From a virus, in IMG/VR virus record IMGVR_UViG_3300029830_000112: a stretch of 5,757 nucleotides of DNA; one strand, given 5' to 3'. The translations under genes were made by a program, and so were the position numbers. Below, piece by piece: positions 1,489-5,757 of this stretch. How positions within the stretch are numbered: the stretch's first letter is position 1; every line of letters starts with the position of its first letter. Under the pieces are notes generated by a model, which was not told the DNA's origin, searched no databases, and was given only the letters and a program-made list of their open reading frames with translations.

Positions 1489-3177
1489 TTACAGTTTATA
1501 CAGGCCCGGCACGCTATACAGCGGCATTCTTCGTGTGGTTTTGTTTGCCACTCGCACGGCTCCGAAAAATTGCGGTTCGCTCTGCACAATCAATGTTCTT
1601 GCAATCTCCGCTTTGCCCTCTGCCATCCATTCCTGGCTGAGCGTTGGTACTTTACTGTATATATCAGCGTAGTGCCAGAAGTCCAGTGTACCGGTCGCGT
1701 TGCTTCTCATGAGGCCGGACACCCGGTTTGGCTTCATTCGGTAGTCTGCCCACGCTTCTTGGTAACCGAATGTTTCTTCATCGGTTGCGTCACCGGTCAG
1801 CATGATTTCTTTCTTCTTTACCGGCTGTTCCCCTAAATTTGCGAACTGCGGGACATAGTAGTCCAGCCGGTCGCGTCGGCTCCAGAAGCGTTCAAGGCCC
1901 TGTTGGTAGCTTCTATTGTGCCGTACACATGCGACGCCAATGACAAAGCCGTGTTCTTCAAAGCTTTTAGTAAAAGAGCTCTCTCTGATAGGTGTTACGG
2001 ACACCGCACCTGTTTCACCGATGGGTGTATCGTTTTCCGTCTGTTGGCCGCTGGTCTGCACAATCTGGTTTACGTTGACTTGATATCTGCCGCCTCCCAG
2101 ATATTCCGGGATTTGTACGGTCTTGTCACTGATTGTTACATCCCATAATGCGCGTACTTGTTCGCGGTACCTGCTGCCACCTCTAGTCAGTGCTTCATAG
2201 TACTGTTGTACTGCTACGGCATTTCTCAATTCGTTGATGGTTGCCGCTGTTACGGCACTTAAGTCTGCCGTCATCCGTTCGCCTAATTTTAGTGACCCAT
2301 TGAATGTTCCCAGGACTGCGCGTGCTTTTTCGTTTACGTTTTCATAGTCTTGGGTCATTATTTCGTTTCCTGTGCGGTATAGATATCCTCCTGCTCCTTC
2401 TTTCCAGATTCCGGTATTTTCCAGGTCTGCGATTACTAACGGATTGTCTGTTCCGTCTGCCCAGTAAATCGGTGCATTGCCCGACATTGGTAGGTTAATT
2501 TCCGGCCCACGTTGTGGGTAAGGCATACAGGATGTGAAGTAGTCGTGGTATTTATTTACCGGAAGTAGATTTCCACCCAGTACTGCGTTTTTCAGGTCTT
2601 TTTCCAGCGTTTCTGTTGCTTCTTCGTCGAAATTGTAAGTCACGTCTTTGCTATCGTTTTTCAGAACTGCCGCGTTGTCTACGTTTTCGTCTCTAAAAAA
2701 CTCATTCCAGATTTTTACATATGCTCGGATTGGTAATGCATTGACGGTGAATGGTTTATTGATTTTCGTAGGCACACCCATGTAGTCCAAAATTGACTTT
2801 TCGTTTGGTGCAGGCTTTTCAGTTGTGCCGTTGATTTTGATTTGTGGTACTTTATATGCTATTGTTGGCATCCATGGTGTTTCCTCAACTTCACCCATGA
2901 AATTTTTAAATTTGTCCCACAAGATTCTATTTGGCGTGTAGAAGTAATAGAAGTCAATAAATGCATCATCCATGACCGGATATTTCGGTGTGCTCATGCG
3001 AATGATTGCTGTCGTGTCTACCTGGAAAGTGTCTCCCGGTAATACCTCGTCCACGAAAAATGGAATCAGTTTTCCGGAATCAAATGTTGTTAGAATAGTC
3101 TGGTCGCGATTAAATCTTGTTCGGCTTGCGTGCATTTCCGGGATTTGAAGGAAATGTCTTTCATTATTTCTGTTCAT
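1489..3177 (-). CDS. VP1: Major capsid protein (Microviridae VP1 / F-like jelly-roll capsid protein), 562 aa.
   Basis: Size is typical of gokushovirus VP1. The N-terminus MNRNNERHFLQIPEMHASRTRFNRDQ...VLPGDTFQVDTTAIIRMSTP resembles the conserved F/VP1 N-terminal beta-strand region (compare phiX174 F ...PVIAGDSFEMD...). Strong SD AGAGGAA upstream. It is the longest ORF and lies on the strand shared by all genes. Confidence 0.85.
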   Translation of the reverse strand: MNRNNERHFLQIPEMHASRTRFNRDQTILTTFDSGKLIPFFVDEVLPGDTFQVDTTAIIRMSTPKYPVMDDAFIDFYYFYTPNRILWDKFKNFMGEVEETPWMPTIAYKVPQIKINGTTEKPAPNEKSILDYMGVPTKINKPFTVNALPIRAYVKIWNEFFRDENVDNAAVLKNDSKDVTYNFDEEATETLEKDLKNAVLGGNLLPVNKYHDYFTSCMPYPQRGPEINLPMSGNAPIYWADGTDNPLVIADLENTGIWKEGAGGYLYRTGNEIMTQDYENVNEKARAVLGTFNGSLKLGERMTADLSAVTAATINELRNAVAVQQYYEALTRGGSRYREQVRALWDVTISDKTVQIPEYLGGGRYQVNVNQIVQTSGQQTENDTPIGETGAVSVTPIRESSFTKSFEEHGFVIGVACVRHNRSYQQGLERFWSRRDRLDYYVPQFANLGEQPVKKKEIMLTGDATDEETFGYQEAWADYRMKPNRVSGLMRSNATGTLDFWHYADIYSKVPTLSQEWMAEGKAEIARTLIVQSEPQFFGAVRVANKTTRRMPLYSVPGLYKL

Positions 3178-3574
3178 TTGCTTCCTCTTTCTGCACCTTT
3201 TCCTGTGCGGCTTCCTGTGCCTTTTTCAGCTCTTCCAGCTTCATGGCTTTTACCTGTGCCGTTGCCATCATCTGGTGATACTCGTGCACGTTCTGCGGCC
3301 ATCCGGTAATGTCCGTGATTGGCATTTCTTCTTTGGATAGTGCTCCCTGTGACAGACTTGCCATAAAGGCCGGGTCGAAACTTGCTTTCCTGACAATGTT
3401 CTTGATGTCACATTCGTCTGCATAGCTTTCAATTTCGGCCTGCACGTCGATGCTTTCGGTTTCCTGCAAGTACTCCTTGCCGTCCTTGTCCTTTGCCCAG
3501 ACGTATTGTTTTCGTTCGTTTTTGCCTGGTTCGGAAAAGAGGGGCTTTCGCCCCTCCTCATATCGTTTATTCAT
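3164..3574 (-). CDS. VP3-like putative internal scaffolding protein (136 aa, acidic N-terminal half, Lys/Glu-rich helical C-terminus). The assignment is by position and composition only.
   Basis: ATG at 3572-3574 with SD GGGAGGG 8 nt upstream. Its stop overlaps the VP1 start by 14 nt (ATGAACAGAAATAA), suggesting translational coupling with the capsid gene. The C-terminus (ATAQVKAMKLEELKKAQEAAQEKVQKEEANEQK) is predicted helical, like microvirus scaffold proteins. Confidence 0.4.
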   Translation of the reverse strand: MNKRYEEGRKPLFSEPGKNERKQYVWAKDKDGKEYLQETESIDVQAEIESYADECDIKNIVRKASFDPAFMASLSQGALSKEEMPITDITGWPQNVHEYHQMMATAQVKAMKLEELKKAQEAAQEKVQKEEANEQK

Positions 3575-3806
3575 GCGGCTTGCCCTCCCATACTTTTTCC
3601 GCGTCGTTCTGGAAGGTTCCTAGTTCGTCTTCAAAGTTGGCCAATTTGAACCCGGTGTAGTCCTGCGGACTTTGGCCGATAAAGGTTTTTTCGTCCTTTG
3701 CCATTACATCGCACATTCGCGCAAACGTTGCGTTATTCTTGCTCTCGCCAACCCATGCATAGCATTTTGCTACTCTGTCCCAGATACCGTAATACGAATG
3801 AATCAT
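3567..3806 (-). CDS. Hypothetical protein (79 aa), possibly VP5-like or another morphogenesis/accessory protein.
   Basis: ATG start at 3804-3806 with SD AAAGGA 8 nt upstream. Its TAA stop overlaps the ATG of the downstream 136-aa ORF (ATGAATAA). Same strand and operon organisation as the structural genes. Confidence 0.5.
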   Translation of the reverse strand: MIHSYYGIWDRVAKCYAWVGESKNNATFARMCDVMAKDEKTFIGQSPQDYTGFKLANFEDELGTFQNDAEKVWEGKPHE

Positions 3807-3928: not shown

Positions 3929-4156
3929 TTACGATATGCCATTGTAGAATCCCCTTCTGATAAGTTCAAGTTCTATTGCGTTTGTAAAGCTCTTTAAGTG
4001 CCAGATTTCGTCTAGCATCTTCTTTGCGGTTTCTATGTCCGCTATCTTGCGCAAGAGCCTATATTGCGCGTTGATTTCTTTGTATTTTTTTTCAAGTAGT
4101 TCAGACAATTCTTTTTCGGTCTGGTCTCTTACGTTCCAGCTTTTGTGCAGGTCCAT
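3929..4156 (-). CDS. Hypothetical protein (75 aa), predicted helical / coiled-coil-like.
   Basis: ATG at 4154-4156 preceded by SD AAGGAG at 8-nt spacing. The sequence MDLHKSWNVRDQTEKELSELLEKKYKEINAQYRLLRKIADIETAKKMLDEIWHLK carries charged heptad-like periodicity. Same strand as all other genes. Confidence 0.5.
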   Translation of the reverse strand: MDLHKSWNVRDQTEKELSELLEKKYKEINAQYRLLRKIADIETAKKMLDEIWHLKSFTNAIELELIRRGFYNGIS

Positions 4157-4281: not shown

Positions 4282-4674
4282 TTATACCCCCTTTCTGTAC
4301 TTGCTGTTGCGAGTGTCAAAGTGCACCCACGATTTATAGACGATGATGCCGCAAGAGTTTGGCGCCAGCTTGTCAAGCTCTTTTGCAACCTCCTTTGGCG
4401 TCATGTCTTTCACGGTGATATCGGCCGCCATGCCGCGCGTGTGGTAGCTGTATTTTGCTCCACCTACTTTTTTGTTATGCTCTGGCGTTCTATATCCGCT
4501 TGTTACGATTACTGGCTTTTTAATTGTCTCGCGTAGGATGTCTAACAGGATTGCTAGACACTCGTCTACAAAGACAATTGGTGACCCATCTTTACACGCG
4601 AATTCTTTTACTTTGAAGTGTTTTGTGATTTTGACGTCTGCTTGTTCGTCTAATACATATGCTTTAATTTCCAT
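4282..4674 (-). CDS. Peptidase M15 (LAS-family zinc D-Ala-D-Ala carboxypeptidase / L-Ala-D-Glu peptidase fold, Peptidase_M15_3-like), 130 aa. Likely cell-wall hydrolase / endolysin.
   Basis: The translation contains the LAS-family zinc-binding signature in the canonical order and spacing: KEFACKDGS...SGYRTPEHNKKVGGAKYSYHTRGMAADI...SWVHFDTR (SxHxxGxAxD plus a terminal WVHxD His). ATG at 4672-4674 with SD AGGTGA 5 nt upstream. A sigma70-like promoter lies directly upstream. Confidence 0.75.
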   Translation of the reverse strand: MEIKAYVLDEQADVKITKHFKVKEFACKDGSPIVFVDECLAILLDILRETIKKPVIVTSGYRTPEHNKKVGGAKYSYHTRGMAADITVKDMTPKEVAKELDKLAPNSCGIIVYKSWVHFDTRNSKYRKGV

Positions 4675-4705
4675 GGCGATTCACCTTTTTTTGTATTCTA
4701 TCGGT

Positions 4706-4734
4706 ATTGTATCATTCAATCTCCGAATTTTCAA
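4706..4734 (-). promoter_or_regulatory. Sigma70-like promoter for the peptidase/accessory-gene module: -35 TTGAAA (4729-4734), 17-nt spacer, -10 TACAAT (4706-4711), read on the minus strand.
   Basis: TTGAAA-N17-TACAAT (5/6 and 5/6 matches to consensus, optimal spacing). It lies about 30 nt upstream of the peptidase ATG, within the intergenic region. Confidence 0.45.
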
Positions 4735-4781
4735 GGGTTGCGTTAGCAACTTTTGAAATTTCGGTGATTTCGCCGTTAGGC

Positions 4782-4946
4782 GTTTTCAACAGTTTCCACA
4801 TAGTTTTCAACTTTTCCACATTGTTAAACTTTATCACAATAGAGTATTTTAACAATTCAACAAGTTTTTAACATTTCTTTTAACAATAGTTTCTTTCATA
4901 AAGAAACGTTATTGTGTTATTTTTTAATGGTTTTCAACTTTTCAAC
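4782..4946. repeat. AT-rich iteron region. It holds a 21-bp tandem direct repeat (4782-4802 gttttcaacagtttccacata; 4803-4823 gttttcaacttttccacattg). It holds three same-orientation DnaA-box-like 9-mers (4792-4800 GTTTCCACA, 4812-4820 TTTTCCACA, 4830-4838 TTTATCACA). It holds TTTTCAAC x4 (4783, 4804, 4931, 4939) and TTTTAACA x3 (4847, 4866, 4878). It also holds an 8-bp-stem hairpin gtttctttcataaagaaac (4889-4907).
   Basis: Repeats read directly from the sequence. TTTTCCACA fits the relaxed DnaA box consensus TTWTNCACA exactly, and the other two have one mismatch each. Confidence 0.6.
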
Positions 4947-4980
4947 TACCTCTACTACTACGACTACAACAAGTTAATAA

Positions 4981-5032
4981 ATATATGCGCGTGCGTGCGT
5001 GCGCGTCTACGTGCGCGTATGCGCGCGCATAC
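4981..5032. repeat. Alternating purine-pyrimidine (Z-DNA-prone) tract: atatatgcgcgtgcgtgcgtgcgcgt-ct-acgtgcgcgtatgcgcgcgcatac, including the perfect 16-bp palindrome gtatgcgcgcgcatac (5017-5032).
   Basis: 26 nt of perfect Pu/Py alternation, a 2-nt break, then 24 nt of perfect alternation. (GCGT)n-like composition. The palindrome was verified by reverse complement. Confidence 0.8.
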
Positions 5033-5036
5033 CTTT

Positions 5037-5155
5037 GAGCGCTTTAGCGCGAACCGGCGTCCGCGCGATTTCAGCGCGGTCAGCGGCTGATCAGTCAGCC
5101 GCGACGCCGTGCCAATAGGGGTCCGGGGACGCGAGCGGAACGCGGCCCCGGGATA
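5037..5155. other. GC-rich island (about 70% GC by eye versus about 43% for the genome) made of consecutive stem-loops. These are gcgc-ttta-gcgc (5042-5053); ccgcgc-gatttca-gcgcgg (5061-5079); gcggctga-tcag-tcagccgc (5083-5102, with the embedded palindrome ctgatcag); and the compound hairpin tccgggg-a-cgcg-agcggaa-cgcg-g-ccccgga (5122-5152). Candidate complementary-strand (ssDNA to dsDNA) origin or another structured cis element.
   Basis: Inverted repeats verified by reverse complementation. The compositional contrast with flanking AT-rich DNA is obvious by eye. Confidence 0.5.
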
Positions 5156-5207
5156 TTGTTTAATTTCAATCACTGCCTAGACTGATACATGGAGCCTTTA
5201 AACGGCT

Positions 5208-5242
5208 CTAGCCCAGTACCTACTTGATAGGTACTGGGCTAG
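5208..5242. other. Perfect 15-bp hairpin ctagcccagtaccta-cttga-taggtactgggctag, 15 nt downstream of the VP4 stop. Candidate rolling-circle origin (Rep nick site in the loop) or transcript-end structure.
   Basis: Perfect 15/15 inverted repeat with a 5-nt loop. A second smaller hairpin gagcc-tttaaac-ggctc (5192-5208) abuts it. The loop plus flank on the displayed strand reads ACTTGATA, the same 8-mer as the phiX174 origin core caACTTGATAttaata. Confidence 0.5.
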
Positions 5243-5256
5243 GTGACACCAAAATC

Positions 5257-5757
5257 TTATAAACCGCCTTTTTGGAGCTTTACAGACTTTTTGATAACTC
5301 TTTCTTTTGTCTTTAAGTCCTCTTCAAAATCTGCATTTTCATACTTTAGTCGGTTTTGTTCGATTACTGCTTTCTGTCGGTTCCTCTTGATTCTCCATAA
5401 TCGTTCTGGGTTTTCTGCTTCCATCATTTTTTCGTAATATCGCGGAATTTGTGCTTGTTTTCCGTTGGTGCATTGAATATAGCCTTTTCGCCATATTTCT
5501 TCTTTGTGCTCTTGATAGTAGGAATCGCCAAGTCCCGGTTTTAGGCTCATACATGCAAATGGTTTTTGCTGGCCTAGCTCGTAGTATTGGTTAGCTTTTT
5601 TTCCGTCTATTTCGTACATCTTTTTTGTGACGTACCCCGCAACATATCTATAGGTTTCGGGTGTTGCCTGTGCTATCTGGATTTGACCCATTCCCCATAG
5701 ATTGCACATCCATTCACTTGTATAATATCCGTTATGCCTTATTTTATAGATTTGCTT
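5257..5757 (-). CDS. VP4: Replication initiation protein VP4, C-terminal portion (contains the catalytic Tyr motif III). Same CDS as feature 1..599, continued across the window edge.
   Basis: ORF-track 150-aa ORF at 5257..5709 contains YVAGYVTKK (YxxxYxxKK, 5620-5646), the twin-tyrosine catalytic motif of phiX174-A/VP4-type Reps. The reading frame stays open upstream through 5757, equal to position 77, into 78-599. TAA stop at 5257-5259. Confidence 0.85.
   Translation of the reverse strand, partial: KQIYKIRHNGYYTSEWMCNLWGMGQIQIAQATPETYRYVAGYVTKKMYEIDGKKANQYYELGQQKPFACMSLKPGLGDSYYQEHKEEIWRKGYIQCTNGKQAQIPRYYEKMMEAENPERLWRIKRNRQKAVIEQNRLKYENADFEEDLKTKERVIKKSVKLQKGGL
5681..5757. repeat. Second copy of the 77-nt terminal redundancy (same sequence as 1-77).
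   Basis: Exact 77/77 identity with 1-77. Confidence 0.95.

Follow-up and report, generated by a model that had tools for sequence, protein, structure and literature searches.

The gokushovirus genome analysed here carries a long perfect hairpin just beyond its Rep stop codon, and across the loop of this hairpin a piece of the phiX174 origin can be read on the strand antisense to all genes. This locus raises the question whether the hairpin serves the Rep protein as nick site and origin and, if so, on which of the two strands. The first-pass annotation had proposed such a role and had left two options for the strand: either the similarity to phiX174 is coincidental, or recognition takes place at the complement, TATCAAGT, on the virion strand.

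Genome organization and the Rep protein

The window, by which the whole stretch of DNA analysed (5,757 bases) is meant, consists of a complete circular gut gokushovirus genome of 5,680 nt plus a 77-nt terminal overlap. Positions 1-77 are identical to 5681-5757, and this terminal redundancy marks the contig as circular. The nearest GenBank records are gokushoviruses from human, monkey and pig gut (KX513877, 84%; KT264792, 83%). All recognisable genes are located on the - strand: VP2 (596-1450), the major capsid protein VP1 (1489-3177; PF02305, E 9e-138), the scaffold protein VP3 (3164-3574), VP5 (3567-3806), a 75-aa ORF (3929-4156) and an M15 peptidase (4282-4674). The VP4/Rep gene (340 aa), also on the - strand, crosses the circular junction, running from 599 to 1 and on from 5680 to 5257, with its TAA stop codon at 5257-5259.

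VP4 aligns with protein A of phiX174 (E 4e-4) through the three rolling-circle motifs, which read FITLT/FDTLT, HYHMILY/HFHAVHF and YVAGYVTK/YVAKYVNK (VP4/protein A), and it possesses the HUH and two-tyrosine motifs as found in protein A. In a Pfam search its only match was PF23343 (REP_ORF2-G2P); membership of Rep_1 (PF01446) was not found.

Between the end of VP4 and the peptidase gene lies a non-coding region of approximately 580 nt (4675-5256). Close to the hairpin, ssDNA structure is much stronger in the segment 4984-5151 (z -7.4). A tRNA/tmRNA scan of the window returned none. Rfam searches at E <= 1 gave weak microRNA-family matches on a GC-alternating palindrome (4972-5045), which were far under the gathering scores and were rejected as spurious. 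DnaA boxes had been suspected by eye in the AT-rich region and were dropped, the pattern TTWTNCACA giving one match versus 0.63 expected.

Structure of the hairpin and its likeness to the phiX174 origin

A repeat search returned two arms of 15 nt, 5208-5222 (CTAGCCCAGTACCTA) and 5228-5242 (TAGGTACTGGGCTAG), 100% complementary and 5 nt apart. They form a candidate origin-type hairpin on the + strand (5208-5242) with a perfect 15-bp stem and the loop CTTGA (5223-5227). The folding energy of either strand as ssDNA was about -19.4 kcal/mol, with z values of -7.1 and -7.5; none of 200 shuffles was as stable. The chance expectation of a perfect 15-bp stem, obtained by arithmetic, is well below 1e-4 per 5.7 kb. 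The stem, which lies outside the gene, is separated from the VP4/Rep stop codon by 14 nt. The perfect hairpin with CTTGA loop that had been described just past the Rep stop was thereby recovered by repeat search as well as by folding. The interval then assigned to it starts at 5192 and also covers a separate small hairpin of 5 bp, GAGCC (5192-5196) and GGCTC (5204-5208) with TTTAAAC between them, which abuts the large hairpin on its non-coding side (5192-5208); a similar ...TTTAAAGGCTCCATGTATCAG segment occurs in part of the clade.

Compared with its relatives, the perfect 15-bp stem with a 5-nt loop is a minor variant. Most relatives carry one additional base, resulting in a stem of 12-14 bp and a loop of 8-10 nt; the inner 1-3 pairs are missing and the loop reads (C/T)TACTTGAT(A/G). 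Because of this extra base, ACTTGAT normally lies wholly inside the loop.

On the + strand, loop and flanks read ACTTGATA (5222-5229). This 8-mer contains the CTTG|ATA nick consensus of protein A and of the Rep_1 plasmids. Protein A of phiX174 cuts between G and A within CTTGATA; the corresponding cut in the window is predicted between G5226 and A5227 on the + (antisense) strand. In Rep_1 (pC194-type) plasmids, CTTGATA is the conserved nick site of the dso (PMC10378824). The 8-mer equals positions 3-10 of the phiX174 origin CAACTTGATATTAATAAC... and phiX174 positions 4301-4308, the rep_origin being annotated at 4306 in J02482, within CAACTTGATATTAATAACACTATAGACCAC. Its identity with the phiX174 origin core and its antisense position relative to the genes, both noted in the first-pass annotation, were confirmed. 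The ACTTGATA 8-mer was found twice, versus 0.15 expected per window. Taken alone, the match is weak evidence, and it is conservation in the relatives that lifts it above chance.

Conservation among gokushoviruses

Comparison with related microviruses had been suggested as a check on the proposed role, lack of conservation being held to speak against it; the comparison turned out positive. A census was taken of 217 non-redundant gokushovirus genomes (3.9-7.3 kb, each with a VP1 match), using a strict regular expression that demanded CTTGAT in a hairpin followed by TGACA. The element, consisting of the hairpin, the loop (C/T)TACTTGAT(A/G) and a 3' box (G)TGACAC(C), was present in 188 of these genomes. 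The strict match was absent in 29 (6/139 in the clade of the window and 23/78 among more distant genomes), and those within the clade include contig-end truncations and one box variant.

In the GenBank relatives the element follows the VP4 stop codon in 16 cases out of 16, while the VP4 C-termini and the sequence beyond the hairpin are divergent. Written in coding sense, their consensus past the VP4 stop is GGTGTCACC-[TA]AG[CG]CCAGTACC-TATCAAGTA(A/G)-GGTACTGG[GC]CT[TA]. A 16-mer covering the loop and inner stem matched more than 119 IMG/VR contigs, about 100 of which are microvirus genomes of 4-7 kb with the whole element. About 20 of the first 119 matches were contigs with neither a VP1 match nor the hairpin, most of them large; these were considered chance matches and excluded. 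Outer-stem pairs differ in a compensatory manner between relatives (TAGGCCAG/CTGGCCTA, AAGCCCAG/CTGGGCTT and TAGCCTAG/CTAGGCTA), as they do in a sister clade (CCAAGTAGC/AGTTACTTGG), and the loop and the GTGTCACC box are kept while the outer stems change.

A covariance model, R1, was built from 75 diverse gokushovirus elements. The window contains a single real match to it, a full match at 5200-5252 on the + strand (62.1 bits, E 6e-14 to about 1e-13). In Chp2 the element reads CTAGCGTATAACAG-TCTACTTGAT-CTGTTATACGCTAG-GTGATAG and is located in the VP3-ORF8 intergenic region (R1, 31.5 bits); this copy is 84-100% conserved in Chp3, Chp4, CPG1 and CPAR39, i.e. in five Chlamydia phages in all. phiMH2K carries a CTTGTT variant, CTACTTGTTGTAA, in a 10-bp hairpin that is matched by R1. 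SpV4 may possess a copy at ~1636-1670, where a CTTGATA hairpin followed by TAGGTGA was tentatively recognised by eye and R1 gave no detection. Furthermore, 80 environmental gokushovirus genomes were retrieved by VP1 alignment. In most of them the stems are quite dissimilar, the loop reads (T)CTACTTGAT(G/A), and a (G)TGACAC(C) box follows after 0-6 nt; the hairpin scan of these genomes required CTTGAT only, and the box emerged unprompted. The hairpin is accordingly, by sequence comparison, a conserved element of most gokushovirus genomes sampled and not a product of chance.

Pairing was quantified in an alignment of 75 diverse copies with an 11-pair helix (A3). These copies were collected with the regular expression CTTGAT...TGACA, and the invariance of CTTGAT and TGA.A in the alignment is partly by construction; the TA after CTTGAT is conserved in at least 70% of the rows. 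In the helix, 75.6% of the cells were paired versus 59.1% in shuffles, the covariation score was 0.366 versus 0.139, and double changes amounted to 152 cells versus 69. None of 500 shuffles reached the observed pairing, covariation score or double changes. When the 3' partner was slid by 1-3 columns, pairing decreased to 29-45%. A constant loop on stems that are lineage-specific but paired is the pattern that a protein-recognised loop would be expected to leave.

Outside the core, likeness to phiX174 is slight. The phiX174 origin 18-mer had no match in the window with up to 3 mismatches allowed, nor was the full 30-bp phiX174 origin, with its AT-rich spacer and key sequence, found there. Searched with R1, the phiX174 origin gave a non-significant local match only (5.8 bits, E 0.84, the second-best local match). 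Top scores of a weight matrix of the gokushovirus element, run over phiX174, fell off the origin and were reached by 67 of 200 shuffles. Homology to the phiX174 origin is proposed for the ACTTGATA core only.

A candidate rolling-circle origin

Directly 3' of the hairpin on the CTTGAT strand lies the GTGACACC box (5243-5250, + strand), a candidate Rep binding site. Elsewhere (G)TGACAC(C) stands 0-6 nt 3' of the stem on that strand, the place that the box occupies in the window. GTGACAC is present as a single copy in the window genome; 49/133 gut-clade genomes have the box in 2-3 direct copies, iteron-like.

The hairpin together with the GTGACACC box probably constitutes the rolling-circle (viral-strand) origin, with the box as Rep binding site and the loop as nick site; we assign this reading a probability of roughly 0.6. 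It is drawn from the conserved loop, the covarying stems, the adjacent box and a Rep with the catalytic motifs of protein A. These are also the observations that lend the original suggestion of a Rep nick site or origin strong comparative support, nicking itself keeping the status of a prediction.

The following course of initiation is envisaged, in which binding, cut position and displaced strand are all inferred from sequence. VP4 would bind the GTGACAC box on replicative-form DNA. Extrusion or melting of the inverted repeat would display (C/T)TACTTGAT(A/G) as a single-stranded loop, and VP4 would cut CTTG|ATA (G5226/A5227, + strand) and stay on the 5' end, leaving the 3'-OH to prime synthesis. 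One round later, the regenerated site would be cut and the displaced strand re-ligated into a circle.

Orientation of the element and the packaged strand

Orientation of the element divides the census by VP1 identity to the window. At 45% identity or more (139 genomes), the CTTGAT strand is antisense to VP1/VP4 in 133 and coding in 0; below 45% (78 genomes), it is antisense in 0 and the coding strand in 55. In the gut clade the whole element is inverted in 133/133 cases and situated just 3' of VP4, ~26-50 nt from the end of the VP4 match. Chp2, phiMH2K (variant) and the 55 environmental genomes have CTTGAT on the coding strand, usually upstream of VP4 (sense class, median 255 nt upstream). GenBank records show the same split: those of the gut clade match the + strand of the window on their own - strand, and microviruses of Ciona, honeybee, blackfly and flamingo (4.1-4.7 kb) match on their own + strand. 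The mutual polarity of loop and box is always kept, the inverted clade included. Since loop and box are inverted together, the change is more than the loop turning over between the two arms. All inverted copies belong to one clade and represent a single evolutionary event. Among the 113 usable genomes, the median nucleotide identity of VP1 is 68% and few pairs exceed 88%, a divergence too saturated for a parsimony analysis of polarised mutations (C>T against G>A at four-fold sites).

The two options initially left for the strand, coincidence or recognition of the complement on the virion strand, are therefore incomplete, as other gokushoviruses carry the same element on the coding strand. It is more economical to suppose that nicking still takes place on the CTTGAT strand and that the equation of virion strand with coding strand may fail for the gut clade. 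Should VP4 nick the CTTGAT strand, as its relatives would, the strand displaced, circularised and packaged in this clade would be the complement of the mRNAs. That the rolling-circle origin of this large clade, with members from human and animal guts, is inverted relative to all genes, and that the clade encapsidates the strand complementary to the mRNAs, is put forward tentatively, at somewhat less than even odds. Textbooks describe the Microviridae as positive-sense, and antisense packaging would contradict this. The virion DNA of Chp2, SpV4 and the reference gokushoviruses is presumably positive-sense.

Base composition was compared between the two classes. On the coding strand of the window, A makes up 36.4% and T 18.4% of the bases; codon position 3 has A 38%, T 15%, C 26% and G 22%. 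At silent sites, the antisense strand is rich in T and G and in this resembles the packaged strands of Chp2 and SpV4 (T 45-55% at position 3). The T-A skew is negative in non-coding DNA too, in 133/133 clade members, and the T-rich antisense strand of the gut clade resembles the packaged strands of phiX, Chp2 and SpV4. A sense-class group from the same metagenome (L246) has a T-A skew of opposite sign. Over the sense-class genomes as a whole, however, the T-A skew ranges from -0.39 to +0.43. A simple skew rule is contradicted by phiMH2K and L056, in which the element is on the sense strand and the coding strand is A-/C-rich. Base-composition skew is no reliable reporter of the packaged strand; antisense packaging is weakly consistent with the values observed.

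Alternative explanations

An origin or operator of Rep with the usual virion polarity would preserve the textbook positive-sense arrangement. In that case VP4 of this clade would cut within the complementary loop TATCAAGTA on the coding strand; alternatively, the element would be a duplex-only binding or autoregulatory site, whose orientation would be of no consequence, with the nick elsewhere. The palindromic stem gives the same hairpin from both strands, the element adjoins VP4 in all classes, which fits an operator too, and the whole-genome G-C skew of the coding strand is +0.06, as in the packaged strands of phiX and Chp2. HUH nucleases, however, read the nick site as single-stranded sequence, and both orientation classes conserve the loop and box on one strand, always in the same polarity to each other. 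The coding strand of the window contains no CTTGAT at all and no second R1 match, and no alternative conserved motif was found on it. We regard usual polarity as unlikely. The hairpin could also be read by the host, as a complementary-strand (single-strand) origin or another signal for primase, RNA polymerase or PriA, or act in packaging, and not be a nick site. phiX174 and G4 use hairpins for complementary-strand initiation. In other microvirus clades, hairpins with compensatory changes have been proposed as negative-strand initiation sites (PMC9865509). A host-read signal would scarcely keep one loop across phages of Chlamydia, Bdellovibrio, gut and environment, however, and the sequence of this loop agrees with the nick consensus of the Rep family to which VP4 belongs. 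The ssoA-type CS-6 loop motif (TAGCGT/A) is missing, and TAGCG occurs on neither strand of 5192-5256; the structured segment 4984-5151 (z -7.4) is a better candidate for such a role. A function of this kind is judged quite improbable, and an inverted orientation-specific ssDNA signal would still imply an inverted packaged strand.

With the hairpin 14 nt past the stop codon of VP4, the gene that closes the block, an RNA element would be well placed to act as intrinsic terminator or 3'-end stabiliser of the transcript ending in VP4. On the coding strand of several relatives, a T-rich run directly follows the stem (for example GGGCTTTTGTCG, GGGCTTTTTTCT and GGGCTTTATTCG). In the window there is no T-tract, the coding-strand tail being AGAGCCGTTTAAAGG, and a terminator scan of 4600-5400 yielded 0 terminator-like sites, which agrees with the first-pass opinion that a classical intrinsic terminator is unlikely. 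A terminator needs neither an invariant loop nor a GTGACAC box, and in the 55 sense-class genomes the element is usually upstream of VP4, with the box and not T's next to it on the coding strand. As the explanation of the element, an RNA function is very unlikely; in some relatives it may be present as a secondary role. Least credible is a role outside replication, either as a mobile palindromic element or as a dif-like (XerCD) site of recombination or integration. Dif-like motifs do occur in non-coding regions of some gokushoviruses, in connection with XerCD integration (PMC7062461), and relatives differ widely in the sequence that borders the hairpin on its non-coding side. By inspection, however, the element bears no likeness to the 28-bp dif site (11-bp arms, 6-bp spacer), a search of 185,579 species-representative bacterial and archaeal genomes (GTDB) with a clade-specific 24-mer from it gave no match, each genome has one copy, and the lytic Chlamydia phages have it as well.

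Implications

Gokushoviruses are among the commonest ssDNA phages of gut and environmental viromes. An origin candidate that can be searched with a model would serve as a well-defined substrate in biochemical work on VP4, as a natural point from which to number microvirus genomes in annotation, and as a polarity marker for each genome. To our knowledge, the element is the first candidate at sequence level for the viral-strand origin of the Gokushovirinae. None of the GenBank records annotates the hairpin element. A full-text literature search, with the founding papers of Chp2, SpV4 and phiMH2K outside its scope, found no gokushovirus origin or hairpin described, and the enterogokushovirus paper in eLife (PMC7062461) makes no mention of an origin or hairpin.

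The inversion leads to the prediction that virions of the gut clade hold the non-coding strand. If this is true, replication in the clade would run head-on against transcription, and the assumption that the Microviridae are uniformly positive-sense would be wrong. We know of no earlier negative-sense members of the family, and the gut clade would be the first. Such a finding would bear on strand-specific virome libraries, on the mutational skews of ssDNA phages, and on the ease with which a rolling-circle replicon can reverse its origin with respect to its genes.

Comparison with known systems

The origin of phiX174 and the Bullavirinae (30 bp, CAACTTG|ATA) belongs to the same virus family, is served by a homologous Rep, shares the ACTTGATA core and lies near the Rep gene. 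By inspection, the two may also be alike in having a nick, a spacer and a GAC-containing box ~18-20 nt 3' of the cut. Unlike the gokushovirus element, the phiX174 origin has no hairpin, is located inside gene A and reads on the coding (virion) strand; in the gut clade, the candidate site occupies the loop of a hairpin on the antisense strand and lies outside the gene, and the sequences have nothing similar beyond the 8 nt. The dso of pC194/pUB110-type (Rep_1) plasmids resembles it in the CTTGATA nick motif, the HUH Rep and rolling-circle replication, but VP4 of the window belongs to PF23343, the flanks are unrelated, and the phage encapsidates a strand.

The architecture recalls CRESS-DNA viruses (circo-, gemini- and nanoviruses), which have covarying stems, an invariant nick loop and repeated Rep boxes beside the stem, and in which it is normal for genes to lie on the complement of the packaged strand. 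Their loop motif is TAGTATTAC or TAATATTAC. The nonanucleotide (T/N)A(G/A)TATTAC was not found in the loop of the window, which reads CTTGA/TACTTGATA, and the likeness is architectural only. CRESS-DNA Reps differ in having one catalytic tyrosine and an SF3 helicase domain, and the element is not homologous. The hairpins of reekeekee- and roodoodoo-microviruses (PMC9865509), likened here by their description, are likewise intergenic, beside Rep, identical in the loop and compensated in the stem; they belong to other clades and are tentatively assigned to negative-strand initiation. Set against these systems, the element is probably an origin of the CTTG|ATA rolling-circle type, known from phiX and pC194, that is set in a hairpin and, in the gut clade, inverted relative to the genes.

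Sequence surroundings of the proposed origin hairpin

The hexamer CTTGAT occurs five times in the window genome, within 2078-2085 and at 3401, 5223, 5386 and 5511, each time on the + strand, and is absent from the coding strand. Apart from the copy at 5223, none of these lies in a hairpin or beside a TGACAC box, the conserved candidate Rep binding site found 3′ of the proposed origin hairpin. The copy at 2078-2085 is a second occurrence of ACTTGATA, located antisense inside VP1.

Downstream of the hairpin, the TGACAC box was found as two to three direct repeats in several of the compared genomes, including L079, L087, L085 and L036 (in L087, for example, GGTGACACCATGAGTGACACCATGACACT). An inverted TGACAC copy (GGGACACTCTAA) overlaps the final VP4 codons in many genomes; the putative Rep-binding boxes may therefore overlap the 3′ end of the Rep gene. 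On its non-coding side, the hairpin is adjoined by a segment (5170-5207) whose - strand reads ...GTTTAAAGGCTCCATGTATCAGTCTAGGC. Many members of the window's gut gokushovirus clade, not all, have a TTTAAAG(G/A)CTCCATGTATCAG segment beside the hairpin.

A G+C-rich, imperfect palindrome of alternating purines and pyrimidines (GCGCGTGCGTGCGTGCGCGT / ACGTGCGCGTATGCGCGCGC) lies at 4979-5036 and forms a hairpin of approximately 22 bp, followed by further G+C-rich hairpins (structured region 4984-5151). Folding of 4960-5260 as single-stranded DNA gave z = -7.4. In most relatives, a similar GCGCGCACGCGC... palindrome directly adjoins the origin hairpin, whereas in the window the two are separated by approximately 170 nt of additional hairpins. 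The palindrome region is a candidate complementary-strand origin or Z-DNA/cruciform element. Rfam microRNA matches at the same region were rejected as spurious.

Within the AT-rich stretch at 4700-4980, TTTTCAAC/TTTCCAC words recur; ATAGTTTTCAACTTTTCCAC, for instance, is present at 4800-4819 and 4927-4946 with 90% identity. DnaA boxes, suggested in this stretch by resemblance on visual inspection, were not enriched (1 match versus 0.63 expected).

Genome ends, gene content and strand composition

Positions 1-77 and 5681-5757, at the two ends of the window, form an exact 77-nt direct repeat. The window is a complete, circularly permuted genome (5,680 nt) in which the VP4 gene spans the circular junction. 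At 517-546, within the 5′ portion of the VP4 coding sequence, two 14-nt arms separated by 2 nt (AAGTGGGCGAGTGA / TCACCCGCCCACTT) form an almost perfect inverted repeat. An M15-family peptidase, likely a lysis enzyme, is encoded at 4282-4674 on the - strand (PF08291, E 8e-22) and is annotated in GenBank relatives as well; upstream of its gene, a sigma-70-like promoter was located at 4734-4706 (- strand).

Strand asymmetry was assessed for the whole window and compared genomes L001-L198. Over the whole window, the coding strand contains 36% A and 18% T, and the T-A skew of this strand is very strong and uniform (-0.33 ± 0.02) among 133 genomes of the clade. The asymmetry was observed in non-coding DNA as well. 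Its sign is opposite in the L246 group, gokushoviruses from the same metagenome that carry the element on the coding strand.

Element variants in phiMH2K and SpV4

In phiMH2K, an isolated phage of Bdellovibrio, a variant of the element is situated on the coding strand at 3297-3343, in the VP5-J intergenic region. Its hairpin measures 10 bp, CTTGAT is replaced by CTTGTT and TGACAC by TCACAG. SpV4 carries a short hairpin on the coding strand at about 1636-1670 (TCTAAACTTGATAAGCAAGGTTTAGGTGATTTAG), which was not matched in a search with covariance model R1, built from 75 diverse gokushovirus copies. In this hairpin, CTTG|ATA sits where stem and loop meet and TAGGTGA comes after it; the hairpin is tentatively regarded as the SpV4 counterpart of the element.
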